DNA of 64,000 nucleotides from the NCBI GenBank assembly GCA_016235455.1, contig JACRKZ010000166.1, positions 845-64,844 on the forward strand, in the 5' to 3' direction. This stretch comes from Armatimonadota bacterium. GTDB taxonomy: Bacteria; Armatimonadota; UBA10988. Shown here piece after piece: positions 4,350 through 61,824 of the stretch. The position numbers were made by a program, and so were the translations under genes. The notes beneath the pieces are model-generated. The model was not told the DNA's origin. It worked only from the letters and a program-made list of their open reading frames with translations, and did no database searches. Each line of letters starts with the position of its first letter. Position 1 is the stretch's first letter.

Positions 4350-4515
4350 GACGACCTTATACCAGATCGAGCGTGGCAGCGTGAGCCTTTGGTGGCATCG
4401 GCCGCCGGGCCGGTGGCCGCACCTGACCGCCACGCAAACGACCGGCCGGGACGCCGCGGCCATCATCGTCGGCGCGGCCGTTGACATTGGCCCGCCGGAT
4501 CGCTACCGTCTGCTC

Positions 4516-28166: not shown

Positions 28167-28198
28167 CGTCGTCTCCCGAGTCGCGGAACCCGAGCAGC

Positions 28199-30318: not shown

Positions 30319-33087
30319 TTATTGCGCGTCGCGGCAGACGGTCGCGTCCGGCACCGCGCCGGGCATGTCGTCCCGCGGCTTGACGGCCAGTTGCTGCCGT
30401 ACCGGCGCGAACACGGCCAGGATGGCCTGATAGTCCGGGTCACTGGTGCCCGCGAAGACTGCCTGACCGCACTTGCCGCTGCCGCCCTGGGCTTTGGCCA
30501 GCGGCGCGGCAGCGAAGCCGTTGAGTTCGGGCCGGTCGAGCCGGGTCCATACCGGCCGCGGCAGCGACTGCGCATGGCACGAGGCGCAGCGCCGCTGGCG
30601 TACGTCGGCCAGCACCTTGTCGAGCCCAGCGGGATAGATGCGGCGGCAGCCGACGGCCAGCGGGTAGGCGGTCTCGCTGGTGCCGTAGTAGGGCACGTTG
30701 AGGTCGATCCAGCTCAGGATGCGTTGCCGCTCGCCGGCCTCGAGCTTCACCCGGGCCTGGCCGTCGGCGCCGGCATGGCCGCCGATGACGATGTCGGCCA
30801 GCCGGCTGCGCGGCGAGCCCCAGGCGCGCGGCGTGATCTCCAGGATGTTGGCCTCCTGGCCGTTGTAGGTGGGGATCCACGACGTGTATGGGTTGTCCAG
30901 CTCGCCCTCGCCGATGGACCGTCTCCCGCGCGCCAGCGTCTCATACGAGACGTTGAAGAAGTCGGTCTTGTCGCCGGCCAGATCGACCCCGCCCGCGGGC
31001 GCCACGCCGTCATGGCAACTCACACAATGCCGGTCCAGCACCGGCTGCACCACCGACGCGTAGTCGAAGCCGACGCCTTGGCCCCAGTCGGGAGGCGTGA
31101 GCGCCGCGGGAGGCGAGGCCAGCGCCGACGGTCGACGTGGCGGCGTGGTCGTCGTGCGCTGCTCGTGACAGCCGACGCAACCTTGCGTCTCGCCCGGCAT
31201 GAGGTGGGTGAAGGTCCTCATGCGCTGGACGGCACGGCCTTCGGCGTCGAGCGCCATGAAGTAGATGGGTACGCCCGCGGGCACCTGGAAGTGCGCCGAG
31301 CCGTCGTCGGCCACGGGTGCGAAGCCCCAGACCTTCTTGCCCGCGTAGGTTGCGCCGCAGGAGATCACCGGGAACTGGAACCCGAAGGCGCGGTTGGCCA
31401 CGTCGGTGCGGACCGGCTTCTCCATCTCCTGCACCACGGCGATGCGCTTCACCTCGCCGCGCTTCACCACTGGCTCCAACCCGCGATAGACGTCCTCGAC
31501 GAACATCGTGGCCCACCCGCCCACGCCCGCCGACGCTGGTTCTGACAACTTCGTGGCGATGGCCGGCACCGCCCGCGCTCGCACCGGCGCGGCGTTGTGG
31601 AAGCCCATGCCGTCGCGCGGCGCGACCACCTCGGCTTCGCTGGTGCGGGCATAGTCGCGCAGCAGCACGGTGCCATCGCGCGACACCAGGTACCACTGGT
31701 CGTCGAGCGGGTAGGGTGTGGCATAGGGCCCGCGGATGTGGTTGCCGCTGCCCTGGTCGACCTTGCCGGCATCGATCTCGGGCGTGAGGTTGGTCAGCGC
31801 GGCCTGGGTGTTGTCGCCGTAGCCACGGTCGATCAGCCCGATGGCGCCGCGAGCCGGGCCGTTGTGCGCGGTCAGCGTGCACAACACCTTGGTGCTGCCG
31901 GGCACCGCGCGAGCTTCCATGATGGTGGCGGGACTGAGCACGCGATTGCCCCAGAATCCGGCCAGACCCGTGCCGTCGGGACTGATGGTCCACAGGCTCT
32001 GGATGGGGATGGCCGGCCGGTCGACGTATTCCCACCGGGAGTAGATGATACGCCCGTCGTTCAGCACGCTCGGCGTGAAGTCGTTGACCAGATTGGCGCT
32101 CAGCCGACGCGCATCGCTGCCGTCGGCGTTCATCCTGAACAGCAGGCCGACGGGCGACACCCAGCAGTAAGCGAACCGGGCCGCGCGCGTGGACAGGAAG
32201 GCGATGCCGCCATCCGGCAGCCAGCAGCCGTTGTAGTCATGCCAGCGGCCGGTGGTCAGTTGCCGGAGTCCGGTGCCGTCGGCGGCGACGGTCCACAGGT
32301 GATAGCCCTGGTCGGTGGCCTGGCGCCAACTGAAGAGGATGGTCCGCGCGTCGGGCGAGACGTCGCAGTCGAGGATCTGCCCCGCGCCGGCGTCGACCAG
32401 CCGTGTCATCGCACCGTCGGGCTCGCGCCGCCACAGGCCGCCGCCGGCCCGGAAGCCCTCGGTGTGGTAGGTGTAGACGTGGCTGGAATCGATGGGGTAG
32501 CGCTGCACCATGACCAGCGGGTCGAGCTTGACCGGGAGTTCGGCCAGCGCCTTGACATCGAGCGTCGACTCGCCGGGCAGCGAGCGCTTGGGCGCCGGCG
32601 TGGCAAAGACCATGATCTCCGATGCGCCGGGGTTGGAGCCGCCATAGGAGCTGCCAAAGACGAAACGGAGCGACTTGGTGACCACTGGCTGGGCCAGCGT
32701 GATCCGCTGCGGGTCGCTGCGCTGCCGGAACTGGCCTGCAGCCAGTTCCTTACTGTCCGCGTCGAGCAGCCGATAGCCCTGCCAGGCTTCGGCCATCTCC
32801 CAGGCGTTGCGCGCGTAGTAGACCACCTCGGCCACGGTGACCGGCTCGGGCCAGGTCAGTGTGAACTCGGCGCCCTGCCGATGCGTGCTCCCGTTGACCG
32901 CCCAGGCCCGGCCGACGTCGTCGTGCGAGCCCGCGCCGGGAATGACGCCGTCGATGGCGCGGTCGGCGCCGTAGGTGTCGTTGAACGCCGACGTGGCGGT
33001 CGCCGTGGCGTGACGAGCCAGGTTCTCGGGCATCTCGGCGGCGGTCAGGCCGCCGAGCGACAGCAGGCAAGCGATCAATGCGCGCAT
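30319..33087 (-). CDS. paralog 2 of discoidin / PD40-propeller / multi-haem c-type cytochrome protein (three CxxCH: GCVGCHE, CVSCHD, RCASCHA)
   Basis: ORF 30319..33510, start at 'MRALIACLLSLGGLTAAE'. Colinear with 4516..7683 ('GETQGCVGCHEQRT...HCVSCHDG...SWIDLNVPYYG'). Confidence 0.7.
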   Translation of the reverse strand: MRALIACLLSLGGLTAAEMPENLARHATATATSAFNDTYGADRAIDGVIPGAGSHDDVGRAWAVNGSTHRQGAEFTLTWPEPVTVAEVVYYARNAWEMAEAWQGYRLLDADSKELAAGQFRQRSDPQRITLAQPVVTKSLRFVFGSSYGGSNPGASEIMVFATPAPKRSLPGESTLDVKALAELPVKLDPLVMVQRYPIDSSHVYTYHTEGFRAGGGLWRREPDGAMTRLVDAGAGQILDCDVSPDARTILFSWRQATDQGYHLWTVAADGTGLRQLTTGRWHDYNGCWLPDGGIAFLSTRAARFAYCWVSPVGLLFRMNADGSDARRLSANLVNDFTPSVLNDGRIIYSRWEYVDRPAIPIQSLWTISPDGTGLAGFWGNRVLSPATIMEARAVPGSTKVLCTLTAHNGPARGAIGLIDRGYGDNTQAALTNLTPEIDAGKVDQGSGNHIRGPYATPYPLDDQWYLVSRDGTVLLRDYARTSEAEVVAPRDGMGFHNAAPVRARAVPAIATKLSEPASAGVGGWATMFVEDVYRGLEPVVKRGEVKRIAVVQEMEKPVRTDVANRAFGFQFPVISCGATYAGKKVWGFAPVADDGSAHFQVPAGVPIYFMALDAEGRAVQRMRTFTHLMPGETQGCVGCHEQRTTTTPPRRPSALASPPAALTPPDWGQGVGFDYASVVQPVLDRHCVSCHDGVAPAGGVDLAGDKTDFFNVSYETLARGRRSIGEGELDNPYTSWIPTYNGQEANILEITPRAWGSPRSRLADIVIGGHAGADGQARVKLEAGERQRILSWIDLNVPYYGTSETAYPLAVGCRRIYPAGLDKVLADVRQRRCASCHAQSLPRPVWTRLDRPELNGFAAAPLAKAQGGSGKCGQAVFAGTSDPDYQAILAVFAPVRQQLAVKPRDDMPGAVPDATVCRDAQ

Positions 33088-33136
33088 GAGGGTGTCCTCA
33101 GACGAGAGTGTGGCAGAGCGCGGTGGCAGACGCAAG

Positions 33137-35590
33137 CTACTTGCCGGCAATGCGCCGTATTGCTTCCACTTCGGCCGGGTCAAACGCTGTCCCATCGGCC
33201 CGCAGCAGGTCGTGATGCCAGACCTTGGGCGCCGGGTCACCGGGCTTGGAGCCCCACGGCATGTAGGTCTGCGTGCGCCCGGCGACCAAGCCCCAGCAGT
33301 AGCTGCCCACCTGCTTCTCCCGCAGCAGTGCCAGATCCGTGGCCCAGCGACTGCCCAGCACACGCGACATCCATTCGGTGCAGAGCAACGGCCGGCCCTG
33401 TGCGGCGAACTCATCGATGGCCGACCGCAGGGCCTGGACGTCGCCGTAACGGTGGAAGGAGACCACGTCCGACAAGGCCAGCATGGTCCTGGCGCAGCCC
33501 GCGGGGCCACCCCACGGCCCGGCGGTCAACGGCTGGCTCGGCGCGGCGGCGCGGGCCCAGCCGAAGGTCGCGGCCAAGAAGGGTTCGCTGCCATCGCCAT
33601 GCGCGCAGTTGCCCGGCTCGTTGTACAGGTCCCAGGCGACAATACGCGGGTCGTCGGCGTGGGTGCCTACCAGATCCTTGACAAACGCCTCGGGCCCCGC
33701 CCATCGGGTCCTGTCGGCGACGATCCCGTGGCCGGGGCTGGGCACCCAGCCGCTGTTGTGGACCCCAGTCACGGGGTCGGGCTGCGGGCCGACGCTCGGC
33801 TCTCGCCCGGCGAACGCGCAGTCGTCGAACAGCACGGGCATCACGCTCTGGCCATGCTTCGCGGCGAGTGCCAGGAAAGCCTCGAAGCGCGCGCGGAAGC
33901 CAGCGGGGTCGTCGGCCCACACCACGTAGTTGAGGAACACGCGCAGCGAGTTGAAGCCCAGACCTTGGGCCCAGCCGAGTTCGCGGTCCATGGTGGGCTG
34001 ATCGAAGGTGGCGGCCTGCCACATCTCGACATCGTTCACGGCGCTGGATGGCAGGTAGTTGCAGCCGACCAGCCAGCCCGCGCGCGCCGACCACTGCGCG
34101 GCGCGTTCCGTTGTCCACCGCGTCGCGGGCAGCGGCTCGGCGGCCACCAACTGCACGTAGGCATCGGTCGCATCGGCCCGCTTGTCGCCGGTCACGCTAA
34201 CCACGAGCTCATGCTGGCCAGGGGCCAGCCCGGTCAGCCGGTGACGCTGGTTCCAGGCCACGGTGGGGCCAAAGGTGTCCAGCGGAGGCAGATCGCGGCC
34301 GTCGAGCGCGAGGCCGGCGATGCCGCAGTCCGGGCCGGACTTGTGCACCAGAGCCAGGCCGGTTCCCGCAAACCTGATCCTGGCTGTGCCACCGGCCTCG
34401 CGGCAGAAATGCAGCGCGCCACCCAACGGGCCGCTGCCTGTCCAGCGTGTCCAGCCGTCGCCGAAGGCGATGCCGGCGTCGTCGTGCGCGGGCAGGCCAG
34501 GCCTGGTCTGCATCTGGCGGTAGTCGCGGTGGGCGAAGTCGAGCGCGGTGTCGTGCGTCAGCGCTCGAATGGCCGTGTGCTCCGCCGGGTCGTACGGTTG
34601 ACCATCACGGTGGTACAGGTCGTGAAACCAGACGGCGGGTTGCGGGGCGCCGCGCTTGCTCGACCAGCCGAACTGGCATTGGGTGCGGCCGTTGACCAGG
34701 CCCCAACTCAGGCAACCGACACCTTCGTCGCGCAGCAGCGACAGGTCGGTCGACCAGACGCTGCCGAGGGGCCTCGCCATCCATTCGGTGCAGACCACCG
34801 GCCGGCCGTGGCGCTTGAAGCGCTCGATGGCCGAACGCAGGCCGTCGCGGTTGCCGTAACAGTGAAAGCTGACGATGTCCGACAGCTCGATCTGCCGCTG
34901 GCTGAGGGCGGCCGACGCACCCCATGGCCCCATGGTCAACGGCTGGCTTGGCCGCGACTCGCGTGCCCAGGTGAAGGTGGCCTCAACCAGGGGCAGGCTG
35001 CGGTCACCCAGGCCGCTGTTGCCCGGCTCGTTGTACAGGTCCCACAGCACGACGCGGGGGTCCTGGCCGAAGCGGCCGACCATGGCCCGCACGTACTTCT
35101 CGAGGTCGGGCCAGGCGCCGCGGTCCTCGACGGCGCGGAGGCCAGGACTCGGTGTCCAGCTCGGCAGGATCATGCCGGGGACAGGTTCGCGTTGCGGGCC
35201 GAGGTGGGGCTCGGTGACCGGTGGGTCGCCAAAGCTGCAGTCGTCGAACAGCACGGGCATGACACGGATGTGGTGCCGGTTGGCTATTGCCAGAAACTGG
35301 TCGAAGCGCCGCTCGGTGCCAGCCGGGTCATCGTGCCACACCAGGTACTGCACAAACACCCGCACAACATTGAAGCCGAGCGTCTGCGCCCAGCCCAGCT
35401 CGCGGTCGATGGTCACGGCGTCGAAGGTGGCAGCCGACCAGAATTCGGTCGTGTTGGCCGCGCTCGAAGGCACGTAGTTGCAGCCCACCAGCCACGGCTG
35501 CGCGCGATACCACTCCCAGGCGCGTTCGGCCGGCCAGGTGGTCGGACCAGCCAGCAGGCTGGACATGATCAGGGGCACGGCGGGGGTCAT
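33137..35590 (-). CDS. secreted protein with two tandem GH5-like (clan GH-A) catalytic modules, each followed by a beta-sandwich domain
   Basis: Internal duplication: 'AERAWEWYRAQPWLVGCNYVPSSAAN...WDLYNEPGNSG...VVCTEWMARP' and 'TERAAQWSARAGWLVGCNYLPSSAVN...WDLYNEPGNCA...LLCTEWMSRV'. Confidence 0.75.
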   Translation of the reverse strand: MTPAVPLIMSSLLAGPTTWPAERAWEWYRAQPWLVGCNYVPSSAANTTEFWSAATFDAVTIDRELGWAQTLGFNVVRVFVQYLVWHDDPAGTERRFDQFLAIANRHHIRVMPVLFDDCSFGDPPVTEPHLGPQREPVPGMILPSWTPSPGLRAVEDRGAWPDLEKYVRAMVGRFGQDPRVVLWDLYNEPGNSGLGDRSLPLVEATFTWARESRPSQPLTMGPWGASAALSQRQIELSDIVSFHCYGNRDGLRSAIERFKRHGRPVVCTEWMARPLGSVWSTDLSLLRDEGVGCLSWGLVNGRTQCQFGWSSKRGAPQPAVWFHDLYHRDGQPYDPAEHTAIRALTHDTALDFAHRDYRQMQTRPGLPAHDDAGIAFGDGWTRWTGSGPLGGALHFCREAGGTARIRFAGTGLALVHKSGPDCGIAGLALDGRDLPPLDTFGPTVAWNQRHRLTGLAPGQHELVVSVTGDKRADATDAYVQLVAAEPLPATRWTTERAAQWSARAGWLVGCNYLPSSAVNDVEMWQAATFDQPTMDRELGWAQGLGFNSLRVFLNYVVWADDPAGFRARFEAFLALAAKHGQSVMPVLFDDCAFAGREPSVGPQPDPVTGVHNSGWVPSPGHGIVADRTRWAGPEAFVKDLVGTHADDPRIVAWDLYNEPGNCAHGDGSEPFLAATFGWARAAAPSQPLTAGPWGGPAGCARTMLALSDVVSFHRYGDVQALRSAIDEFAAQGRPLLCTEWMSRVLGSRWATDLALLREKQVGSYCWGLVAGRTQTYMPWGSKPGDPAPKVWHHDLLRADGTAFDPAEVEAIRRIAGK

Positions 35591-47282: not shown

Positions 47283-47338
47283 GATCGAGCAGCCTCCCAG
47301 CAAGGCTGCCATGGTACCACGGACCCAGGGGTTTGTCC

Positions 47339-51649: not shown

Positions 51650-51908
51650 GGCAGGCTCCCACGGCCGAGCCACAGGCCTCGGCGCGTCCCACATCGGTCG
51701 ATGCCACCGTGTTCGTCGCGCTGGCCGCCGCACCTCCGCCACGCGCAGGAGCCAGCCGCCGCGCCGCGAAGCATGGGGCGCCGCGCCGCGACAGCGGCCG
51801 GCGCCACAGGCGATGAGTCGGCGCCCAGCGAGGTAAGTAAGCGCTCATTCACCTGTTCTGCTACACTCGGCGGGCGGCCCGGTCACACTGGGTCCAGAGA
51901 ACGATGAC

Positions 51909-53951
51909 ATGAAGCATCCTGCCATCAAGCGTATCGCTATCGTGCTGCTCCTGGTCGGCGTCGGGTTGGTGGTCAACCGCGTGCGTCATCCGCGCGAGGA
52001 TCCCACGCTGGTCAAGGGCAGCGGCACGGTCGAAGCCACGGAGATTGGTGTGGCCTCGCAGGCCACGGGTCGCATCGACAAGCTGTTGGTGGCCGAAGGC
52101 GACGCCGTGACCGAGGGTCAGGTGCTGGCTCAGCTGAGCGCCGATGCGCTGAGCGCCGACCACGAGCGCACGGAGGCGGCGGCCTTCTCGGCGCGCATGA
52201 GGCTGGCCAACCTGGCGCGCGGCAGCCGCTCGGAGGAAGTCCGGGCCCGCGCCGCCGCGTTGTCGGAGGCGCTGGCCAACGTGCAGGGCGCGCGGCGACA
52301 GATGGCCAATGCGCGGGATGCCTACCAGCGCCCGCCCGACCTGCGGGCCGCTTACGACACGGCGCACACGCAGGTGCGGGCCAGCGGCGCGCAGCTCGAC
52401 CAGGCGCGAGCCCAGTTGGCCGAGGCCAAGGCCGGCGCGCGGCCCGAGGAGCTGAGCGCTACGCGCGCGGCGCGCGCCGCCGCAGGTTCGGCGGCCGTGG
52501 GTGCCGGCGCGGCGGTGGACCAGGCTGACGCTGCCCGGCGCGCGGCGGCCGCGCAGTTGGCCGAGGCCGACGCCGCGATCAAGGGCGCCCAGGCCGATCT
52601 GGCCCAAGCCCAGGAGATTCTGGCCCAGCGTAGCGCCGCCACGACGCAAGTCGCCGCGGCGACGTTGCAGCTGGAGAGCGCGCAGGCGGCGCAGGCGGCG
52701 GCGCAGGCGCGCCGCGACACCGTGGAGTCGCCGCCGCGACCCGACCGGCGCGACCAGGCCGAGCAGGCCCTGAGCCAGGCCCGCGCGGCGCAGGCGTTGG
52801 CTGAGGCCGAGGCCAAGCGCCAGCGCAACCTGTTCGAGCAAGGCGCGATCAGCCGGCGCATTCTGGACCAGGCCAGCACGACGCTGGACCAGGCCCGCGC
52901 CGCCACGAAGTCGGCCGAAGCCGGGCTGCGCGATCTCGATGCCGGTGCGCGCGACAGCGAACGCCGTGAGGCCAGCGCCTCGCTGACCGGCGCGCAGGCG
53001 GGCGTACGCGGCGCCGAGGCGGCCCTGGCCAACGCCAAGCACGAGCAGGCTATCGCCGTGGCCGCCGCGCAGCAGGCGGTCGAGCGCGCCAAGGCGACGC
53101 TGGCCGGGGCCAACGAACGCCGCGCGCAGGCGGTGGCCAACCAGGACCAGTCGGCCGACCGACTGCGCGGCTCACGCGCCACGGCCGAGCAGGCCAAGGC
53201 CCAGAGCGAGCAAAGCCAGGCCGCGCTGGACCTGGCGTTGGCCGGCACGCGCGCCGAGCGTCTGGCGCAGAGCAGCGCCGCCGTGCGCACCGCCGAGGCC
53301 CAGAGCGCCGGCGCCCAGGTGGCGTTGAGCAATGCCGAGCGGGCCTACCAGGACCGCTTCACCTATCGCGCCAACCTGCTGGCCGCGGAGCAGTCGGCCA
53401 GCGCCGCGGCGGCACGGGTCGACCAGGCCCAGGCGCAACTGGACCTGGCGCTCGCGGGCAACACCTCCGAGGTGATCGAAGCGGCGCGCGGTGAGCTGAA
53501 CCAGGCCACCGCCGCGGAGAAGACGGCCAAGGCCCGGCTGGACGACACGGTCATCCGCGCGCCGGCCACGGGCACGGTGAGCGAGCTGATCCTGCGCCAG
53601 GGCGAGGCCTGTACGCCGGGCTCCGTCGTGGTGCGCATGCTGGACCTGGCGCACTTGTGGGTGCGGGTCTATCTGCCGACGACGGCGTTCACCAAGGTCA
53701 AGCGCGGTCAGGACGTCGACGTGCTGGCGGACGCCTTCGCCAAGCCCGTGCGTGGCCAGGCCAGCCGCCGGTTCGCCGGCCGGGTGCTGACCGTCAGCGA
53801 CCAGGCCGAGTTCACGCCGAAGAACGCGCAGACCGTGGAGGAGCGGGTCAAGCAGGTGTTCTGGGTCAAGATCGATGTGGGCGACGGCCAAGGGTTGCTC
53901 AAGCCGGGCATTCCCGTGGACGTGCGGCTGCGCGTGGGTCAGGGCGGCTGA
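51909..53951 (+). CDS. HlyD/YbhG-family membrane-fusion (periplasmic adaptor) protein with ~480-residue Ala/Gln/Arg-rich coiled-coil hairpin
   Basis: N-terminal TM 'IAIVLLLVGVGLVV'. Repeats of 'L.AGxRxEE(V/L)' HlyD_D23-type units. C-terminal beta-barrel 'VIRAPATGTVSEL...VKIDV'. Confidence 0.8.
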   Translation: MKHPAIKRIAIVLLLVGVGLVVNRVRHPREDPTLVKGSGTVEATEIGVASQATGRIDKLLVAEGDAVTEGQVLAQLSADALSADHERTEAAAFSARMRLANLARGSRSEEVRARAAALSEALANVQGARRQMANARDAYQRPPDLRAAYDTAHTQVRASGAQLDQARAQLAEAKAGARPEELSATRAARAAAGSAAVGAGAAVDQADAARRAAAAQLAEADAAIKGAQADLAQAQEILAQRSAATTQVAAATLQLESAQAAQAAAQARRDTVESPPRPDRRDQAEQALSQARAAQALAEAEAKRQRNLFEQGAISRRILDQASTTLDQARAATKSAEAGLRDLDAGARDSERREASASLTGAQAGVRGAEAALANAKHEQAIAVAAAQQAVERAKATLAGANERRAQAVANQDQSADRLRGSRATAEQAKAQSEQSQAALDLALAGTRAERLAQSSAAVRTAEAQSAGAQVALSNAERAYQDRFTYRANLLAAEQSASAAAARVDQAQAQLDLALAGNTSEVIEAARGELNQATAAEKTAKARLDDTVIRAPATGTVSELILRQGEACTPGSVVVRMLDLAHLWVRVYLPTTAFTKVKRGQDVDVLADAFAKPVRGQASRRFAGRVLTVSDQAEFTPKNAQTVEERVKQVFWVKIDVGDGQGLLKPGIPVDVRLRVGQGG

Positions 53952-54874
53952 TGCAGGCCGTCAGCGTCACCGGGCTCAGTCGCCACTACGGCACCACGCG
54001 GGCCGTGGACGACGTGAGCTTCGAGGTGGCCAGCGGCGAGATCTTCGGCATCGTCGGCCCTGACGGCGCCGGCAAGACCACGCTCATGCGGCTGCTGGCG
54101 GGCATCGTCACGCCCACGTCCGGCGGCGCCATGGTCGCCGGGTGCGACGTGGTGGCCGATCCCGAGGCCGTCAAGCAGCGCATCGGCTACCTGTCCCAGG
54201 TCTTCTCGCTGTACCGTGATCTGACGATCGGAGAGAACATCGACTTCGTGGCCGACCTCTACAGCGAGGACCTGGTCCGCGCGGGCGAAGCCAAGGCCCG
54301 CATGTTGGCCATGACCGGCCTGGCGCCGTTCGTCGACCGCCAGGCGGGCCGGTTGTCGGGCGGCATGAAACAGAAGCTGGGTCTGATGTGCGCGCTGATT
54401 CACCGGCCCACGGTTCTGCTGCTGGATGAGCCGACGACGGGTGTCGACCCGCTCTCACGGCGCGACTTCTGGCGCATTCTGGCCGACCTGCCGAGCCAGG
54501 GCGTGACCATTGTGCTCAGCTCGCCGTACATGGACGAAGCGTCACGCTGCCATCGGCTGGCGCTCATGGACCATGGTCGCGTGCTGGCGGTGGGCAGCGC
54601 CGCCGAGCTGGCCGCGCGGGTCAGCGGCCAGATGGTCGAGGTGGTCACACCCGACCCGCGTGGCGCGCTGCGCGTGCTGGAGGGCCTGCCGGGCCTGCTC
54701 AGCGCCACGCCGTTTGGCGATGCGCTGCATGTGCGGCTGGACGGCGACGACGCCGTGGCGCGGGTGAGCGCGGTGTTGGCCGGCGCCGGCGTGGTGTTCA
54801 GTGAAGCCCGCCCGGCCGAGGCCAGCCTGGAAGACGCCTTCATCGACCTCGTGGGCCGGGGGGAGACGGCATGA
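53951..54874 (+). CDS. ABC transporter ATP-binding protein (YbhF N-half-like)
   Basis: ATG overlaps the HlyD stop (TGATG). 'GPDGAGKTT', 'LSGGMKQKLGLMCAL', 'LLLDEPTTGVD'. Confidence 0.85.
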   Translation: MQAVSVTGLSRHYGTTRAVDDVSFEVASGEIFGIVGPDGAGKTTLMRLLAGIVTPTSGGAMVAGCDVVADPEAVKQRIGYLSQVFSLYRDLTIGENIDFVADLYSEDLVRAGEAKARMLAMTGLAPFVDRQAGRLSGGMKQKLGLMCALIHRPTVLLLDEPTTGVDPLSRRDFWRILADLPSQGVTIVLSSPYMDEASRCHRLALMDHGRVLAVGSAAELAARVSGQMVEVVTPDPRGALRVLEGLPGLLSATPFGDALHVRLDGDDAVARVSAVLAGAGVVFSEARPAEASLEDAFIDLVGRGETA

Positions 54875-55812
54875 GCGAGCCAGCCCCGGCCATCGTGGTG
54901 CGCGACCTGGTCAAGCGCTTCGGCGCCTTCGCCGCGGTGGACCACGTCTCGCTGAGCGTCGCGCGCGGCGAGGTATTCGGCTTCCTCGGGCCCAACGGCT
55001 GCGGCAAGTCGACCACCATCCGCATGATCTGCGGGCTGCTGGGGCCGACCAGCGGCAGCATCGAGGTGGCCGGCCTGGATGTGCGCACCCATGCCGAGCA
55101 GATCCGCGCGCGGGTGGGGTACGTGGCGCAGTTCTTCAACCTGTACCGCGACCTGACGGTCTATGAGAACCTGACCTTCTACGGCGGGGTCTACGGTGTG
55201 CCGCGCGCCGAGCTGCGGTCGCGCGTCGAGCACTGGTGTGAGCGGCTAGACCTGAGCCGATACGGACGGGTGCTGTCGGGCGAGCTGTCGACCGGCGTGC
55301 AGCGCAGCCTCGCGCTGGCCGCGGCGGTGCTGCACGAGCCGGCGGTGCTGCTGCTCGACGAGCCCACCAGCGGCGTTGACCCCATTGCGCGGCGTGCCTT
55401 CTTCGATGTCATCGGCGAACTGGCCGACGGCGGCACCAGCATCCTGGTCACCACGCACGTCATGGACGAAGCGGACCGCTGCGGGCGGCTGGCGCTGATG
55501 GATCGCGGCAAGCTGGTGGCCGAAGGCACGCCCAGTGAGATCCGCGCCATGGGCGGCACCGACATCTGGCAGGTGTCGGCCGACCCGCCCAGCCGCGCGC
55601 TGACGCTGGCCGAGCAGCATCCGGGCGTCGACGCGCCGGCGCTGTTTGGCACGCGGCTGCAGTTCAGGGTGAGCGACGGCACCACCGCGGTTGCCGTGGC
55701 GCAGTGGCTGCGCGACCAGGGCGTGACCTGCGATGAGCCGCGGCCGGTGCGCGCCACCATCGAGCACGCCTTCCTGCAACTGCTGCGCCGGGACGACGGA
55801 GACAACGAATGA
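54871..55812 (+). CDS. ABC transporter ATP-binding protein (YbhF C-half-like)
   Basis: 'GPNGCGKST', '[15 protein letters not shown]', '[11 protein letters not shown]'. ATGA-coupled. Confidence 0.85.
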
Positions 55813-56939
55813 GGCGCACCCGCGCCATCGCGCGCAAGGAGTGGATCCACATCCTGCGGGACAAGCGCAGCCTGGCGGCGGTGCTGACGCTGCCCGTCGT
55901 GCTGGTGCTGCTCTATGGGTACGCGGTCAACTTCGACCTCAACGCGCTGTCGTTTGCCCTGGTGGACGACGACCACAGCGCCGCCTCGCGCCACTTGGCC
56001 GAGAACCTGAGCGGGGTGCGGCCGTTCGTCTTCAAGGGCACGCTGGCCAACGCCGCCGAGGCCGATAGCGTTTTCCAGCGCGGCATCGCACGCGTGGTGG
56101 TGGTCGTGCCGGCGGGCTTCGAGCGGCTGCTCGACAGCGGCCGGCCGTCGCCGGTGCAGGTGCTCGTCGATGGCTCCGAAGGCACCATCGCCACCATTGC
56201 CCAGACCTACACGGTCGGCGCGATCAGTACGCTCGGCCGCACACTGACCAAGGCACAGGCCCAAGGTCGCGGCATCTCCAAGCGGTTGCTCGAGCCGGCC
56301 ATCGATGTGCGCGTGCGCGTGCTGTACAACCCCGACCTGCTCAGCCGCATGTTCCTCGTGCCGGGCCTCATCGGCATCATCCTGATGATGCTCGCGGCAC
56401 TGCTCACCTCGGGCATCATCGTGCGCGAGCGGGAGAGCGGCACGTTTGAGCTGCTGGCGGCCAGCCCCATCGGGCCGATGGAACTGCTGGTGGGCAAGAT
56501 GCTGCCCTACCTGATCATCGGCGCGGCCGATGTGGTGGTGGCGGTGGGCATGGGCTGGGCGGTGTTCGGTGTGGAGCCCAAGGGCAGCCTGCTGCTCCTC
56601 TTCGCACTGTCGCTGGTCTACGTGCTGGCCAGCTCGGCCATTGGGCTGTTCTTCTCGTGCGTGGCGCGCAGCCAGCAGACGGCGATGATGATGGCCTTCG
56701 TGGCCACCGTCATCCCGACCATGATCCTCTCGGGCTTCGCCTTCCCGGTGCGCAACATCCCGCTGGTGCTGCAGGGCCTGTCGCAGATGCTGCCGGCCAC
56801 GCACTACATCGCGATCGCCCGCGGCATCATCCTCAAAGGCATCGGCCTGGGACCCATCTGGTGGCATGGCCTGGCCCTGGCGCTGCTGACCGTGTTCTGG
56901 ATGCGGCTGGCGCTGCGCAAGTTCAGCAAGACGCTCTGA
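55809..56939 (+). CDS. ABC-2-type exporter permease (YbhS/YbhR-like)
   Basis: '[22 protein letters not shown]' N-terminus. 6 TM. Large first periplasmic loop. Confidence 0.8.
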   Translation: MRRTRAIARKEWIHILRDKRSLAAVLTLPVVLVLLYGYAVNFDLNALSFALVDDDHSAASRHLAENLSGVRPFVFKGTLANAAEADSVFQRGIARVVVVVPAGFERLLDSGRPSPVQVLVDGSEGTIATIAQTYTVGAISTLGRTLTKAQAQGRGISKRLLEPAIDVRVRVLYNPDLLSRMFLVPGLIGIILMMLAALLTSGIIVRERESGTFELLAASPIGPMELLVGKMLPYLIIGAADVVVAVGMGWAVFGVEPKGSLLLLFALSLVYVLASSAIGLFFSCVARSQQTAMMMAFVATVIPTMILSGFAFPVRNIPLVLQGLSQMLPATHYIAIARGIILKGIGLGPIWWHGLALALLTVFWMRLALRKFSKTL

Positions 56940-56952
56940 GGACGGAGACACC

Positions 56953-58071
56953 ATGCGGTTGCGCTATCTGCTGGTCAAGGAGCTGCTCCAGATGCGGCGT
57001 AACCCGGCCATGCTGCGCATGGCTGTGTTCATGCCCATCATGCAGACGCTGCTGCTGTCCTTCGCGGCCAACATGGACGTGACCAACGTGCCGCTGACCA
57101 TCTGGGACGCCGACCGCAGCCCGCAGAGCCGGGCGCTGGTGCAGATGGTCGGCTCCTCCAACGCCTTTGTCCTGAAGGGCTACCGCATGTCGCCCGAGGA
57201 GCTGGAGCACGACCTGGACTCGGCGCGGGCCTCGCTGTGTCTGGTCATCCCCGCCGGATTCGCGCGCGACGTGGAGCGTGGCGAGGCGACGCTGCAGGTG
57301 CTGGTCGACGGCACGGAATCCACGACCACGACCGTGGCCGCGGCCTACATCGCGCAGATGGCGGGCGACTTTGGCGCGCAGGTGCAGCGCAAGCTCGTGG
57401 CGCGGCGTGGCTTGCACCTCAACCTGGGCCAGATCACGCCCGTGCCGCGCGTGCTCTACAACCCCGACGCGCGCACGCTGTGGTTCATGGCGCCGGCCAT
57501 CATGGCGCTCGTGCTGACCACGCTCATGCAGAACATCACCGCCCTGTCCATCGCTCGTGAGCGCGAACTGGGCACGCTGGAGCAGTTGGTGATGACGCCG
57601 GTGCGGCCCGCGGAGATCCTGCTGGGCAAGCTGGTGCCCGTGGGGGTGATTGGTCTGTTCGACGCCGGCCTGGTCAGTGTCATCGTGGTGCATGCGCTGC
57701 ATGTGCCGTTTCGCGGCAGCGTGGCGCTGCTGGCCCTGGCCACGATCATCTTCTTGTTCGCCGTGCTCGGGTTGGGGTTGCTCGTGTCCACCGTGTCGCA
57801 CAATCAGCAGCAGGCGCAGCTGACCAACTTCTTCCTGTCGTACCCCTCGATGCTGCTGTCGGGCTTCATCTTCCCCGTGTGGAACCTGCCGGCCCCGCTG
57901 CAGCCGGTCAGTCGGCTGGTGCCGATGACGCATTTCCTGGAGATCACGCGCGGCGTGTTTCTACGGGGCTCCGACGCCTCCGCGCTGGCCGGCCATCTGG
58001 CGTGGATGGCCGGCCTGGCGACTGCATTCTTCGTCGTGGGCGCCTTGCGCTTCCACAAGCGACTCGACTGA
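56953..58071 (+). CDS. ABC-2-type exporter permease (YbhS/YbhR-like), second copy
   Basis: 'MRLRYLLVKELLQMRRNPAMLRM'. Same architecture as the preceding permease. Confidence 0.8.
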   Translation: MRLRYLLVKELLQMRRNPAMLRMAVFMPIMQTLLLSFAANMDVTNVPLTIWDADRSPQSRALVQMVGSSNAFVLKGYRMSPEELEHDLDSARASLCLVIPAGFARDVERGEATLQVLVDGTESTTTTVAAAYIAQMAGDFGAQVQRKLVARRGLHLNLGQITPVPRVLYNPDARTLWFMAPAIMALVLTTLMQNITALSIARERELGTLEQLVMTPVRPAEILLGKLVPVGVIGLFDAGLVSVIVVHALHVPFRGSVALLALATIIFLFAVLGLGLLVSTVSHNQQQAQLTNFFLSYPSMLLSGFIFPVWNLPAPLQPVSRLVPMTHFLEITRGVFLRGSDASALAGHLAWMAGLATAFFVVGALRFHKRLD

Positions 58072-58140
58072 GCCCTCACCCGCGCCGCGCTGGCCGGCCG
58101 CTCGATCGCTCGGCGGGCCGGGCAGAACGCACACGTTGGC

Positions 58141-58599
58141 TCAATCGGCCGTGGGCGGGGTGGGGGCCGTGTCGCCAACCGGGCCGAGCTTGCGCAGGTA
58201 GACCCAGCCGCGCTGTGGATAGGTGGTGCGGCCGGTCCGCGCACCGATCCAATCGGCTACCTTCTGCGAGGTCCACTTGCCGCCGCCGGGCGGCGCCTGG
58301 TGCAGTGCCGCAGCCAGTTCGGCCTGTTGCGCGGGTGACAGCATGGGCGTGGCGCCGGGGTTGGCGTGGCGCCGGTCGGTCAGACAGCCGGGGCCGTTCT
58401 CGTTGTACTCATGCACCAAACGGCGGACCCAAGGGATCGAATACCCGGTCGTCTCGGCTACTTTGCGCGTGGACGAGCCGCTCGACATCAGAAAGATGAC
58501 CTGATAGCGGAGACGCTCGACGGGATCTCTGCTGGCACGGAATCTGCTTTCCAGTTCGTCTGGCGTCAAATGCGGCTTCACAATCGGACGTCGCGGCAT
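58141..58599 (-). CDS. orphan IS630-family transposase N-terminal HTH/winged-helix domain (no DDE catalytic ORF follows); likely insertion-sequence remnant
   Basis: ORF 58141..58698, start at 'MPRRPIVKPHLTPDELESRFRA'. 'STRKVAETTGYSIPWVRRLVHEYNENG' HTH typical of IS630/Tc1 OrfA. The adjacent region holds no transposase core. Confidence 0.55.
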   Translation of the reverse strand: MPRRPIVKPHLTPDELESRFRASRDPVERLRYQVIFLMSSGSSTRKVAETTGYSIPWVRRLVHEYNENGPGCLTDRRHANPGATPMLSPAQQAELAAALHQAPPGGGKWTSQKVADWIGARTGRTTYPQRGWVYLRKLGPVGDTAPTPPTAD

Positions 58600-58737
58600 G
58601 TGGGATCCTCCTACCCAGGCCGACAGGGGCACGCTACGGTCCCCGCAGGTCGGTATTATTGCCCACGCACCGCGGATTACGGGATACGTTGAATTCACAT
58701 AGGCGACATGTTCGGCCAGGAGCCGACTCGTCGGCGT

Positions 58738-61689
58738 TTAGGTGGTGGGTTGCCACCAAAGCGACTCCCAGTAGCGTCGCTCAACTGCGTATGGATCAAT
58801 GGGCTCGCCATCGGTTCGTCCGGGCGCCAGGATGCCATAGCGTTGCATCTCGCGAACCCAGGCTGCACGGGGCTGGAAACCCGGCATGTCGAACCGCCGG
58901 ATGGTGTTGAGCTGAGTGGAGGCCGCCTGCACCATGGCCAGGATGGCCTGGTAGTCGGTGTCGTCGGTGCTGGGCAGTACCGCCTGGCCGCAGCGTTGCC
59001 AGCCGCCCGCCGCCTTGGCCAGCGGCGCCAGCAGCAGCGCCGACTGGGCCGGTTCGGTGAGGTCGTAGAGCAAGTGGCGCGCGAAGCGACGGCGCGGGTC
59101 GTTGGGGCCCATGTCCTCCCACGGGGGGCCGGTGATCTCGTCGGTGGCCGATTGGGGCAAGGCCTTGGCGCCGGTGTGGCAGCTGTTGCAGCGGCGCCCG
59201 AGCGCTGCCATGCCGGCCTTCGTGACGGGCTGCTGCAGGTCGGCGCGGTCCAGGTTGTTCTGGGCGTAGCCGCCGATCATGCCGCAACCCAGCGCGGCGT
59301 AAGTGCCTGGGTGCGGTGCGCCGACCTCTATCCAGAGGCGCACGGTACGTCGTTCCTGGTCGGTCAGGCGCACGCCGTGGTGGGCCTCGGTGAGCTTGGC
59401 CATGAGCGGGCTGGCGCTGCTGCCGAGCTTGCGCGGCGGGTAGTTGCTGATCGGCCGGTTGCGTCCGTCGGCCACCTGACTGCGCGCGGTCAGCGCGAAG
59501 TAGCTGAGGGTGAACAGCGGGCCGCGATGGTTGATCAGGTTGACGTCGCCGTCACGGCGCTGCGGGTTGTGGCAACTCACGCAGTGGCGGTCCCAGATGG
59601 GTTGGATGTCGCGCGGGTAGTCCAGCACGTCGGGCACGTCGCTGATCGGCGTGATGGCCGACGGCGCGCGCATCACGGCCGCGGGCATGGCCGTCGCCGT
59701 CCGTGGCGGTGCCTTGGTGCGGTGCTCGTGGCAGCCGACGCAGCCCAACGTCTCGCCCGGCTGCACGGTGGCGAAGCTCTGCATGCGCTTGACGGCCAGA
59801 TCGTCCTGGTCGAGTGCGACGAAGATCAGGCTGCGTAGCGCCGGCGCCTCGAAGTAGGCGGAGCCGTCGGGCTCGACGGGCACGGTGCCCAGCACGCGTT
59901 CCAGGGTGAACGTGCCGCCGTAGCTCAACGGCTCCATGCCGCCGGTGAAGTTGACCGGCTTGGGCAGGCTTTCGAGCACCAGCAGCTTCTTGATCTCGCC
60001 GCGCGTCACGCCCTCCATGTTGCGGCCCAGGTGCACGTCCTGGAGCATGAAGCGGCCGGTAGTGCGGGCCAGTTCGGCGCGCGCGGGAATGACCCGCTCG
60101 CGCCCGCGGACGATCACCGGACGCGGCTCGTTGAGCCAGTAGCCTGCCTGCTGGTCGGCCGCGGGCAAGGCGAACAACTCGGCGGTGCGGCCGCGCTCGT
60201 CGCACAGCATCAGCGAACTGCCGCGCGCGGCCATGATGGTGTCTTCGCCAAACGCCCACGGGTCGCGGAAGTCATCGCCGCGGGTCAGCGCGCGGGCCGA
60301 GCGGTTCTGGTCGGGCCCGGCCTTGGGGTCGATGATGCCGATGCGACCCTCGTGTTCGGTCTTGCCGTGGCCGGGCGAGAAGCTGGCCACGATCTTGTGG
60401 CTGCCGGGGATGGGTTTGGCGTCGATGAACACGTCGCCGGCGCGCTGGTTGCCGAACCACACCTCCTGCACCGTGCCGTCGGGGTAGGCCGACCACAGGT
60501 GGTGGTAGTGCACCTGGCTGCGATCGACATACTCCCAGCGCGTGTAGAGAATGCGGCCGTCGGGCATGACCCAGGGCGTGTTGTCGTGCTCGTTGTTGCT
60601 CGATATCGGCCGCAGATTCGTGCCGTCGGCATCGCAGCGGTAGAGAATCGCCACCTGCGTCAGCCAGCAGTTCACCCACCGCTTGCAGCGCGTGGAGACG
60701 AACACGATGCCGCCGTCGGGCAGGTAGGCGGGTTCGATATCGTCCCAGTCGCCGGTGGTGATCGGGCGCACGGAACGATCGGCCAACGTCATCTCGTACA
60801 GGTTGTAGTGGTCGCTGGTGCCGCGGCGCCAGCTGAACAGCATCTTCTGGCCGTCGTAGCTGACCTGCGGGTCGCGCAGGCCGCCCTGCGGGTCGTCCAG
60901 CAGCGTCTCCAGCGCCTTGGTGCGCAGATTGAGCCGGCACAGCCGCCCGCCAGGTCGGTAGAGCTTGGCCGCGCTGTCGGCCGCGTAGTACGAGAAGTTG
61001 GCGTACCAGTGCTCGCCGACAGGCTTGCGTAGTGCAAAGACCACCGAGTCCACGGGCGCCATGGTGCCCGTCAGCGCGCGCTCCACCAGATCCCCCGAGC
61101 CGCCGTTGACGGCCGGCGCCGCCTGCTCGGCGCTCAGCAGCAGGTAGTCGTAGATGATCCAACTGCCGTCGTCCATCGTTACGGTCAGTTCGTTCGTCCC
61201 GGCCTTGGCCCCGCCGGCCGCCACGGGCACGGCCAGGTCGCTAGGCTCGCTGAGTAGGAATGGATCGAAGGCCAGTTCGGTGCCGTTCTTCGCCGGCAGG
61301 CGCTGCTCGAGCAGCTTGTTGCCGTTGATCGCGATGCGGATCAGGCTCGGTTCCCAGCTGGCCAGGTAGCCCAGGTGCAGCCACAGCGGTCTGGTCGGCG
61401 CGTCCTTCAAATTGAAGCGCAGCGTGAAGGTCTGCGGCTTCCCGCCGGCCCAGCTATCGTGCGTGCTGGGGTGGATGTAGGGCCAATCGGTCAGCTTGCT
61501 CTGGCCGAGCGTGACCACCACCGGCTGCCGGTACGTTTCCGCGTAGCCGGTCCAGGTGCGGTCACACAGCCCAAACTCCGCGCACGACCCGTCGGGCGTG
61601 CCCAGTTGCATGAGCGGCGCCTCCGCGGCCACCAGCCGCCCAGCGATCAGCACGACCAGCCACCAACGCAGTGATCTCAACCAATTCAT
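58738..61689 (-). CDS. paralog 3 of PD40-propeller / tri-haem c-type cytochrome protein with a different N-terminal beta-sandwich domain (three CxxCH: GCVGCHE, CVSCHN, CNSCHT; PSCyt1-like 'RLWIEVGAP')
   Basis: Signal 'MNWLRSLRWWLVVLIAGRLVAA'. The propeller and cytochrome part is colinear with the other two paralogs ('RWEYVDR', 'GETLGCVGCHEHRT', 'HCVSCHNP'). Confidence 0.7.
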   Translation of the reverse strand: MNWLRSLRWWLVVLIAGRLVAAEAPLMQLGTPDGSCAEFGLCDRTWTGYAETYRQPVVVTLGQSKLTDWPYIHPSTHDSWAGGKPQTFTLRFNLKDAPTRPLWLHLGYLASWEPSLIRIAINGNKLLEQRLPAKNGTELAFDPFLLSEPSDLAVPVAAGGAKAGTNELTVTMDDGSWIIYDYLLLSAEQAAPAVNGGSGDLVERALTGTMAPVDSVVFALRKPVGEHWYANFSYYAADSAAKLYRPGGRLCRLNLRTKALETLLDDPQGGLRDPQVSYDGQKMLFSWRRGTSDHYNLYEMTLADRSVRPITTGDWDDIEPAYLPDGGIVFVSTRCKRWVNCWLTQVAILYRCDADGTNLRPISSNNEHDNTPWVMPDGRILYTRWEYVDRSQVHYHHLWSAYPDGTVQEVWFGNQRAGDVFIDAKPIPGSHKIVASFSPGHGKTEHEGRIGIIDPKAGPDQNRSARALTRGDDFRDPWAFGEDTIMAARGSSLMLCDERGRTAELFALPAADQQAGYWLNEPRPVIVRGRERVIPARAELARTTGRFMLQDVHLGRNMEGVTRGEIKKLLVLESLPKPVNFTGGMEPLSYGGTFTLERVLGTVPVEPDGSAYFEAPALRSLIFVALDQDDLAVKRMQSFATVQPGETLGCVGCHEHRTKAPPRTATAMPAAVMRAPSAITPISDVPDVLDYPRDIQPIWDRHCVSCHNPQRRDGDVNLINHRGPLFTLSYFALTARSQVADGRNRPISNYPPRKLGSSASPLMAKLTEAHHGVRLTDQERRTVRLWIEVGAPHPGTYAALGCGMIGGYAQNNLDRADLQQPVTKAGMAALGRRCNSCHTGAKALPQSATDEITGPPWEDMGPNDPRRRFARHLLYDLTEPAQSALLLAPLAKAAGGWQRCGQAVLPSTDDTDYQAILAMVQAASTQLNTIRRFDMPGFQPRAAWVREMQRYGILAPGRTDGEPIDPYAVERRYWESLWWQPTT

Positions 61690-61824
61690 CCGATATCTGC
61701 CTGCTAGACCCTGGGTGTTTCGACGCCCATCCTGGGTTCCTTGTTGTCACACCTTCATCGCAAACGATCAATGTGAAAAAGGAGTTGGGCGCCTGAGCGC
61801 CAACCTCCGGTGCGGGAGCTGATC

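Follow-up and report, generated by a model that had tools for sequence, protein, structure and literature searches.

The window, that is, the whole 64-kb stretch of DNA that was analysed, holds three genes for related haem proteins, a small open reading frame (ORF) derived from an IS630 element and a cluster of transporter genes (Table 1). The main gene, labelled paralog 3 in an earlier note on this DNA, has as neighbours the ABC transporter cluster and a gene for a secreted Ig-domain protein. Its GC3 of 0.90 matches that of adjacent genes. Genes for GH106-like, GH5, fucosidase-like and GDSL proteins and for several GFO_IDH_MocA proteins are also found in the window. No promoter or terminator was detected on the minus strand between 57900 and 62000.

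Table 1. Positions of the genes, domains and motifs discussed, numbered along the window.
Feature	Coordinates	Strand	Description
Paralog	4516..7683	(+)	DUF7402 N-terminal module, two CxxCH; listed ORF 4102..7683
Paralog	30319..33087	(-)	DUF7402/discoidin-type N-terminal module, three CxxCH; listed ORF 30319..33510
HlyD-like gene, two ABC ATPase and two ABC-2 permease genes	51909..58071	(+)	Assigned by Pfam; converge on the locus
HTH ORF, IS630-derived	58141..58599	(-)	152 aa, without DDE; HTH_23/29/32/33 Pfam matches
Spacer, cytochrome gene to HTH ORF	58600..58737	(-)	138 nt
Main gene (paralog 3)	58738..61689	(-)	983-aa HzsA-like tri-haem protein, ATG start
Haem motif 3, CNSCH	59176..59190	(-)	aa 834-838
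Haem motif 2, CVSCH	59569..59583	(-)	aa 703-707; aligns with second HZS alpha motif (CAMCH)
Haem motif 1, CVGCH	59728..59742	(-)	aa 650-654; aligns with CSGCH of HZS alpha
HZS_alpha middle domain	59725..60000	(-)	aa 564-655; PF18582, E 2.1e-19; haem motif 1 at its end
Beta-propeller, TolB/PD40-like	60010..61047	(-)	aa ~215-560; PD40 and TolB matches
Linker/junction	61048..61104	(-)	aa 196-214; slot for module presence, absence or exchange across the family
CBM-like jelly-roll module, PL4 domain III type	61105..61620	(-)	aa 24-195
Signal peptide, probable Sec	61624..61689	(-)	aa 1-22, MNWLRSLRWWLVVLIAGRLVAA; read off the sequence

An exported three-haem protein and its in-window paralogs

The main gene belongs, as an ordinary member, to a widespread family of exported three-haem proteins with kinship to HzsA, the alpha subunit of anammox hydrazine synthase (HZS). 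Its product is laid out as a signal peptide, a jelly-roll, a beta-propeller, an HZS_alpha middle domain and three CxxCH motifs. For the full-length protein, AF2 gives a model with a pLDDT of 92.1 and a pTM of 0.88, in which pLDDT is low over the signal peptide region (residues 1-22). Attachment of c-type haem requires export. The propeller region is all-beta in the model and aligns with the propeller of HZS alpha, and the PF18582 match scores 70.3 bits, above the gathering threshold of 26.6, making this an HZS_alpha domain-containing protein. The three CxxCH motifs (starting at residues 650, 703 and 834) are invariant in a 20-sequence alignment. Among 99 sequences, C650, G652, C653 and H654 of the first motif do not vary, and the second motif is likewise invariant. 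The third is nearly invariant within the subfamily and missing from paralog 4102..7683; no counterpart of it was found in HZS alpha.

As listed, the two paralog ORFs are over-extended. Signal-peptide-like starts lie at 33087 and 4516, so all three proteins consist of a signal peptide, a beta-sandwich module and the core. ORF 30319..33510(-) aligns with residues 197-949 of the main protein at 33% identity (tblastn, E 7e-99) and ORF 4102..7683(+) with residues 244-793 at 27% identity (E 2e-49), while neither aligns with the first ~200 residues. Pfam assigns DUF7402 to both paralogs and gives a sub-threshold F5_F8_type_C match in the 30319 paralog. The earlier note had proposed a distinct N-terminal module for the main protein, and this is borne out, with PF14683 in the main protein, DUF7402 in the paralogs and the core alone shared. 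The note's conserved propeller and tri-haem region stands as far as the core is common to the paralogs, but one of them (4102..7683) has just two CxxCH. The 'RLWIEVGAP' tail, also described as conserved, is not: the exact string 'RLWIEVGA' occurs in the main copy only, and the paralogs show W[IV]D..xPY, a looser motif. Judged from the sequences, the module difference would reflect ancient subfamily divergence (27-33% identity) and not a local swap.

Identity, age and turnover of the N-terminal module

Pfam places a CBM-like domain, PF14683, at residues 26-184 of the main protein. This is domain III of polysaccharide lyase family PL4, a membership feature of that family, and the module profile matches 1nkg within residues 326-489 only. 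Compared with the rhamnogalacturonan lyase RhgB of Aspergillus aculeatus (PDB 1NKG), the main protein is without the PL4 catalytic domain I and the Fn3-like domain II (no Pfam match at E <= 0.01), and its module is N-terminal and joined to a cytochrome. The nearest relatives of the module outside HzsA-like proteins are carried by GH38, GH92 and GH5 enzymes.

Of the 120 best database matches (51-66% identity, 95-100% coverage), 116 are built in the same way over their full length, which means that the N-terminal swap is neither local nor recent. The MAGs with this architecture carry labels such as Planctomycetota, Verrucomicrobiota and Armatimonadota, among others, and all but one of these relatives have three CxxCH, the exception having four. 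The closest relatives, P0001, P0002/L004 and P0003 (61-66% identity), each have a CBM-like module. The main protein forms a clade with P0001 and P0002 in 55 of 60 bootstraps of a neighbour-joining (NJ) tree of the core. A sister relation between this trio and the discoidin-bearing clade, seen in the point-estimate NJ tree, was dropped at 3/60 bootstraps.

Synteny links the locus to a UBA5419-like Armatimonadetes genome (L003) through six collinear genes, among them the 51909..58071 cluster at 58-69% amino acid identity. There, the ortholog has the CBM-like N-terminus and overlaps the ABC-2 gene by 4 bp, and the IS630/HTH piece is absent. Synteny in relatives was among the findings that the earlier note had named as speaking against its reading. 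Of two further loci, L084 gives a contiguous 2985-bp alignment with the window at 79% nucleotide identity, HTH ORF included, and L085 is 73% identical, both comparisons covering the sequence up to a point short of the 5′ end of the gene and hence not the N-termini. Synteny with L002, the locus of P0001 (66% identity), does not extend outside the gene itself. Along with the rest of the gene, the N-terminal module would be vertically inherited. The module is old and common to relatives, and is not the result of a recent swap due to a transposon remnant.

At the level of the family, module shuffling is real, as the earlier note had anticipated. The 86 core relatives comprise 28 with a CBM-like module, 12 with discoidin and 46 with none, 'no module' being called from the first start codon past an in-frame stop on MAG contigs. 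Fitch parsimony counts 16-19 state changes over 40 bootstrap trees, thus at least 16 in every tree, although weak deep nodes in the NJ core tree, among them a seven-member clade recovered in 3 of 60 bootstraps, make the exact count and the direction of the changes uncertain. The expectation is 2 changes for a single origin per state and ~34 for random states. The discoidin clade is basal in 0/50 bootstraps. Depending on the relative, the helix that starts the core ('LLxxxLAGPMxGVxEIVFAxR') is preceded by a signal peptide, a CBM-like module or a discoidin module. The slot between signal peptide and first core helix would thus be a site of repeated gain, loss or exchange of a glycan-binding-type module.

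Three other accounts of the N-terminus have been weighed. According to one, which comes close to the suspicion of the earlier note, a discoidin-type N-terminus was swapped recently, possibly in this strain alone, with help from the adjacent IS630. The module does differ from those of the paralogs, an IS630-derived ORF lies 139 bp away and the family does exchange modules. Such a swap is nevertheless very improbable, given the architecture of 116 of the 120 nearest homologs, an IS-free syntenic relative (L003) that is already CBM-like, and paralogs that are just 27-33% identical. Moreover, the remnant is old (dS 0.8-1.1 between syntenic copies) and is found past the C-terminal end of the protein, with 2.9 kb separating it from the junction of the module; being at the 3′ end of the gene, it had no part in the N-terminal difference. 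The earlier note had itself raised the alternative that the domain is a discoidin (F5/8 type C) that has diverged strongly, which would abolish the module difference. It was rejected and retains hardly any probability, since Pfam returns no discoidin or DUF7402 match for the module and the CBM-like profile is unrelated to the discoidin and DUF7402 profiles (hhalign probability 0.1%). A role as polysaccharide lyase is suggested by NCBI, where P0006, P0025 and P0029 are named 'polysaccharide lyase family protein', and by the PL4 origin of PF14683. It is exceedingly improbable, as domain III is non-catalytic and stands alone, and outside it the protein adopts the HZS-alpha fold and carries three haem motifs. 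The main protein is not a polysaccharide lyase; the label on such proteins stems solely from a non-catalytic domain and is misleading.

The IS630-derived HTH ORF

The IS630 HTH fragment that the earlier note had recognized beside the main gene is indeed there. It begins 139 bp past the stop codon and matches NF033545, the IS630 transposase model, over model positions 2-109 of 299 (64.4 bits, cut-off 100). No DDE domain was found for it, and 69 bp are left before the next gene. The ORF occupies the identical syntenic position in L084 and L085. The spacer measures 138, 138 and 140 nt in the window, L084 and L085, respectively, with 63-68% identity and conserved blocks that include GATAATACC and GGTAGGAG ahead of the ATG. 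The syntenic copies from these three lineages share 76-82% amino acid identity at ~75% nucleotide identity, and their dN/dS of 0.12-0.22 (dS 0.77-1.08) is at or below that of the flanking genes. None has a frame-breaking indel, and L084 and L085 are free of indels relative to each other over 462 nt. P0124 is a fourth 152-aa homolog, 77% identical. A search for IS630 inverted or direct repeats at 57950-58850 gave only weak, GC-rich, chance-like matches; the same holds for weak matches between the region upstream of the HTH ORF and the left end common to L086 and L087.

Two-ORF IS630 elements, exemplified by L087, consist of an orfA and, behind it in a different frame, an orfB of the DDE type. 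The HTH ORF has the HTH_23/29/32/33 layout of orfA and shares 46-60% identity with orfA proteins that are 154-180 aa long. Unlike these, it ends ~25 aa short of the natural orfA end, has no orfB and, in three or more lineages, keeps a fixed syntenic site and is subject to purifying selection. Once the UBA5419 lineage had split off, a two-ORF IS630 would have landed between the cytochrome gene and the ABC-2 gene, which converge here, and would then have lost its DDE part, the orfA-derived HTH being kept by purifying selection. From its sequence record, the ORF looks domesticated rather than decaying, and its product is probably a DNA-binding regulator. It would be a clear-cut case, in a bacterium, of purifying selection preserving the DNA-binding domain of a transposase at a fixed locus.

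Solo genes and their partners

Beside many module-less relatives lies a fused beta-gamma gene, coding for a propeller and a CCP/MauG dihaem domain. Adjacency was scored at loci with adequate flanks (at least 2.2 kb for the 17 module-bearing ones), and a beta-gamma neighbour was found at 19 of 32 module-less loci against 0 of 17 module-bearing loci (Fisher p = 2.6e-5, kinship ignored). A tblastn search at E 1e-3 found no beta-gamma homolog in the window. The module-bearing proteins would accordingly be 'solo', acting without this neighbour. A Pfam scan of 101 proteins flanking module-bearing loci revealed no recurrent partner, the top families occurring in 3-4 members, with a mild carbohydrate flavour (3-keto-disaccharide hydrolase 3, GH127 3, GFO_IDH_MocA 2). 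Once exported by Sec and loaded with haem, the three-haem redox protein would be tethered to a glycan, or oriented on it, by its N-terminal module. Around its gene, glycoside hydrolases and sugar oxidoreductases are abundantly encoded. Such a glycan-tethered redox role is likely, judging by domain content and neighbourhood.

In the reading that is favoured here and considered probable, the main gene is an orthologous, solo member of a large and old HzsA-like subfamily, with vertical inheritance of the module, recurrent turnover of the slot and an HTH ORF that is under selection and unrelated to the module. Two alternatives bear on the last points. The main protein could instead act as alpha subunit in an HZS-like alpha-beta-gamma complex, with the partner gene lying in another part of the genome, of which the window covers 64 kb. 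Its core indeed shares 54-63% identity with module-less relatives, and many of these are encoded beside beta-gamma homologs. The lack of such a neighbour at every module-bearing locus scored, and of a homolog in the window, renders this improbable. A neutral, decaying IS630 fragment, its frame open by chance, would account for the missing DDE, the GC3 of 0.75-0.78 against 0.90 in adjacent genes and the variable C-terminal ~14 aa of the HTH ORF, in a window of 70% GC that is rich in long spurious ORFs. The chance of this is smaller still, considering the fixed position in three lineages, the low dN/dS, the intact frame and the 77% identity of P0124. Going beyond the favoured reading, solo module-tagged HzsA-like tri-haem proteins might make up a widely distributed but overlooked class of redox enzymes that are targeted to glycans in the periplasm or at the surface of Planctomycetota, Verrucomicrobiota and Armatimonadota, the module replacing beta-gamma substrate delivery and the adjacent HTH serving as a domesticated regulator of the locus. 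Taken as a whole, this proposal is rather unlikely. More narrowly, the non-anammox relatives of HzsA come in two mutually exclusive forms, either partnered by beta-gamma or solo with a glycan-binding-type module. This split offers a testable clue to what a family of thousands of proteins does.

The best Foldseek match in the PDB is HzsA of Kuenenia stuttgartiensis (5C2V chain A, E 1.3e-30), with 790 aligned columns and a target-normalised TM of 0.63 across the propeller, middle and C-terminal haem domains. HzsA is also hit by the family profile (E 5.7e-17), has the PF18582 domain in common, and aligns its two haem motifs with the first two CxxCH of the main protein. The two proteins are nonetheless 19% identical, and the main protein scores 46.7 bits against the NCBIfam equivalog NF052339 (cut-off 800). 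Unlike HzsA, it has a third haem motif, a longer C-terminus and the N-terminal CBM-like module. HzsA comes from an anammox bacterium, whereas the host here is an Armatimonadetes MAG. The main protein is not a hydrazine synthase. Haem alpha-I of HzsA is reportedly unusual: Dietl et al. are said to have described in 2015 a Tyr ligand to it, with the CxxCH histidine binding zinc. HzsA reads CSGCH-YG at this motif and the main protein CVGCH-EHRT, with no Tyr within four residues of the motif in the sequence, which may point to ordinary His ligation.

The main protein belongs to the same family as the HzsA-related or 'HZS_alpha domain-containing' proteins of non-anammox bacteria; NCBI names its homolog P0082 'HzsA-related protein'. 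The main gene is thus one more member of a family already named "HzsA-related" or "polysaccharide lyase family protein". Hundreds of structural homologs of HZS alpha have been described, none with an experimentally confirmed function, in an article that concentrates on those encoded together with a fused beta-gamma homolog (PMC12758564, Genome Biol Evol 2025). Relative to that set, the main gene is of the solo, module-bearing type. A term search of that article gave 0 mentions of carbohydrate-binding or discoidin modules, and a literature search found nothing relevant tying such modules to hydrazine synthase homologs.

Secreted fusions of CBM and haem domains occur in fungi, namely cellobiose dehydrogenase and the AA12 PQQ pyranose dehydrogenase with AA8 cytochrome and CBM1. 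Their haems are b-type and those of the main protein c-type, and in the latter neither a PQQ nor a FAD site was recognized. As a functional analogy, the fungal enzymes and the main protein would share a modular logic in which a secreted protein joins a CBM and a catalytic body (a propeller) to a cytochrome domain for electron transfer.

The tri-haem protein and its N-terminal module

ORF 58738..61689 is a genuine gene for 983 aa with an ATG start and a GC3 of 0.90, as in adjoining genes (the window is ~70% GC). It bears out the earlier note's description of a third paralog, with CxxCH motifs at residues 650, 703 and 834 and a core common to the two other copies. The full-length structure is confidently predicted (pLDDT 92.1, pTM 0.88), and among PDB structures the model most closely matches 5c2v_A, hydrazine synthase alpha (E 1.3e-30, 19% identity across 790 aligned columns; TM 0.63, normalised to the target). 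Both haem motifs of HzsA align with haem motifs 1 and 2 of this protein; no counterpart of the third was found in HzsA. Hundreds of HZS-alpha structural homologs, none with experimentally confirmed function, are described outside anammox bacteria (PMC12758564, 2025), with no mention of carbohydrate-binding modules. The protein is a new member of this known but uncharacterised HzsA-like family. A hydrazine synthase proper was considered and rejected on the NCBIfam equivalog score (46.7 against a cut-off of 800), and is further opposed by the host, an Armatimonadetes MAG, and by the lack of any beta-gamma homolog within the 64-kb window. The nearest genome match to the locus is Armatimonadetes UBA5419.

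Features of the locus and its surroundings (aa, residues of the ORF 58738..61689 protein)
Feature	Position	Strand	Remarks
Tri-haem HzsA-like gene	58738..61689	-	
CBM-like PF14683 (polysaccharide lyase family 4 domain III)	aa 26-184		Pfam
PD40 propeller repeats			Pfam, same protein
HZS_alpha middle domain PF18582	aa 564-655		Pfam
HTH ORF	58141..58599	-	starts 139 bp past cytochrome stop; IS630 transposase model positions 2-109 of 299 (N-terminal HTH third)
Spacer, cytochrome stop to HTH start	58600-58737		
Paralog	30319..33510	-	ORF as listed
Paralog	4102..7683	+	ORF as listed
GH106-like rhamnosidase	48458-51742		
GH5	33137-35590		
GHL6/fucosidase-like	1746-4487		
GDSL esterase	26880-28247		
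GalT	46245-47312		
CysN/CysC sulfate-activation fusion	9221-11566		
Large secreted protein	61825-64000	+	divergent; extends past window edge

The N-terminus does differ as the earlier note had observed, being CBM-like here and DUF7402 in both paralogs, with an additional sub-threshold F5_F8_type_C match in the 30319 copy (Pfam). Its identity as a diverged discoidin domain is rejected, since profile-profile comparison finds no similarity to the discoidin N-termini of relatives or to the paralogs' DUF7402 (probability 0.1%); discoidin and DUF7402 match each other at E 0.0024. By SCOP/Pfam clan, the module does share the broad jelly-roll fold class of discoidin. Searched exhaustively with HMMER, residues 23-195 return 418 representative clusters at E <= 1e-3. 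Sampled matches outside the HzsA-like family lie on GH38 and GH92 mannosidases and one GH5 enzyme, mostly right behind the signal peptide, so the module is an accessory one of CAZyme type.

By tblastn, the 30319 paralog is 33% identical to the tri-haem protein over residues 197-949 and the 4102 paralog 27% over residues 244-793. At such distances they represent ancient subfamilies, not recent duplicates. Conservation of the tri-haem region and its 'RLWIEVGA' tail holds only in part: three CxxCH motifs are present here, but the 4102 paralog has two only and the literal tail is unique to this copy. Both paralog ORFs as listed are too long, running into the GH5 and the fucosidase-like gene, respectively. 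Their true starts, each with a signal-peptide-like sequence, are at 33087 and 4516, and all three proteins therefore comprise signal peptide, beta-sandwich module and core.

Age of the architecture and module turnover

Was the module acquired recently at this locus? Of the 120 best matches from a search of 5.8 billion proteins, 116 combine a CBM-like N-terminus (31-57% identity) with the core (54-70%). Every one of the 120 has three CxxCH motifs, except for one with four, and their MAG labels include Planctomycetota, Verrucomicrobiota, Armatimonadota and others. The gene forms a clade with the database proteins P0001 and P0002, both module-bearing, in 55 of 60 bootstraps. Together with the divergence of the paralogs, this shared architecture shows that the copy is no recent swap. 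On contig L003, which encodes P0002 and is practically identical to UBA5419 contig L004, the next five genes after the ortholog are those of the window (two ABC-2 permeases, two ABC ATPases, HlyD-like), collinear and 58-69% identical. The locus is therefore syntenic in a relative, contrary to a strain-specific copy, and synteny was an outcome that the earlier note itself had named as refuting its reading; no synteny is found with the P0001 contig, L002. The cytochrome and ABC-2 genes of L003 are convergent and overlap by 4 bp, with no HTH ORF between them.

The module shuffling proposed in the earlier note fails as a local event and holds for the family. Scanning one genome per GTDB species recovers this core, 50-67% identical, at 80 loci, of which 24 have CBM-like and 9 discoidin-type N-termini, the remainder carrying a signal peptide only. 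On NJ core trees of these loci and key database matches (86 ingroup sequences, rooted on the in-window paralogs), Fitch parsimony counts 16-19 changes of N-terminal state per tree across 40 bootstrap trees, against 2 if each state arose once and about 34 with random labels, counts that rest on distance trees with weak deep support and on inferred start codons in MAG contigs. A clade with discoidin N-termini (P0086, P0096, P0113, L014), 63-64% identical to this gene in the core, is always nested among CBM-like members (basal in 0/50), with no well-supported exact sister. The core opens with the same helix, LLxxxLAGPMxGVxEIVFAxR, in all three N-terminal states, so the module occupies a slot between signal peptide and helix. 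Diversification of the HzsA-like family by N-terminal module exchange is supported.

The IS630-derived HTH ORF

The IS630 fragment noted beside the gene is indeed there, and no DDE domain was found in it; only 69 bp separate it from the convergent ABC-2 permease gene. It cannot have mediated the N-terminal difference, as had been suggested, because it lies at the cytochrome 3′ end and the IS-free L003 relative has the same N-terminus. Its closest homologs are all 152-180 aa. In a mobile-type relative (contig L087), a 167-aa orfA precedes a DDE-type orfB in another frame; the window copy stops ~25 aa short of the natural orfA end and lacks orfB. The identical 167-aa protein (P0127) occurs at L087:323-826, with orfB following, and at L086:740-1243, where similarity stops ~30 bp past orfA and unrelated convergent genes ensue; the latter is a second, independent orphan orfA.

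Contigs L084 and L085 share the window's layout of cytochrome C-terminus, 138-140-nt spacer, 153-aa HTH ORF and convergent ABC-2 gene. The window aligns contiguously with L084 over 2985 bp at 79% nucleotide identity, and with L085 at 73%. Pairwise dN/dS is 0.12-0.22 for the HTH ORF (dS 0.77-1.08), 0.21-0.24 for the cytochrome C-terminus (dS 0.79-1.15) and 0.11-0.23 for the ABC-2 permease (dS 0.53-0.90), and the HTH frame is kept with 0 indels in 462 nt between L084 and L085. Low dN/dS and an intact frame at a shared position look like domestication, not decay. On this evidence an IS630 element inserted after the UBA5419-lineage split and later shed its catalytic portion, while selection retained the domain that binds DNA. 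Terminal repeats and a promoter were looked for at the IS630 piece and not found. The spacer keeps its length (138/138/140 nt in three lineages) and the blocks ACGAGTCGG, ATATGTC..ATGTGA, GATAATACC and GGTAGGAG at a dS of about 1, which suggests regulatory or structural constraint. An independent public assembly (Logan SRR12113397, contig L001) matches window 58059-63206 at 100% identity over 5148 bp. It ends within the ABC-2 gene and not at the HTH piece, which therefore did not break the assembly in the way expected of a multi-copy repeat.

Partner genes, genomic setting and possible action

Clustering of the ORFs around these 80 loci shows one neighbour more often than any other, the fused beta-gamma homolog of PMC12758564 (~609 aa), which joins a seven-bladed propeller to a CCP/MauG dihaem domain. 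It flanks 25 of the 80 loci and is usual beside module-less members. Where both flanks reach at least 2.2 kb, it adjoins on the same strand 19/32 module-less but 0/17 module-bearing loci (Fisher p = 2.6e-5, kinship among loci ignored). This mutual exclusion and the apparently domesticated HTH are by-products worth recording. Module-less genes often adjoin a ~1161-aa fusion of another HZS_alpha protein with an FGE-sulfatase (SUMF1-like) domain (16 loci), and a RidA-domain fusion lies near them at 8 loci; with the core and beta-gamma, these look like a conserved multi-gene HZS-like system (L018-L068, e.g. L035:4724-6553, L047:6525-10010). No conserved partner gene was found for module-bearing loci, whose neighbours are only scattered 3-keto-disaccharide hydrolase, GH127, GFO_IDH_MocA and AXE1 genes.

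The window is rich in CAZyme-related genes (GH106-like, GH5, fucosidase-like, GDSL, several GFO_IDH_MocA), and at least four GFO_IDH_MocA oxidoreductases lie within positions 1-48000. The secreted protein encoded divergently from the tri-haem gene has a He_PIG Ig-like domain and, in its C-terminal region, a motif of the 'FGNETWHNG' type that recalls glycoside hydrolases, with no catalytic Pfam match; its gene is not conserved upstream of the L003 ortholog.

The tri-haem protein would be exported by Sec and receive its haems in the periplasm, where the N-terminal module may tether it to glycan. Haem 1, within the HZS_alpha domain, would serve for electron transfer or catalysis, with haems 2 and 3 as a relay. 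A loose functional analogy may be drawn with fungal CBM-cytochrome-dehydrogenase fusions.
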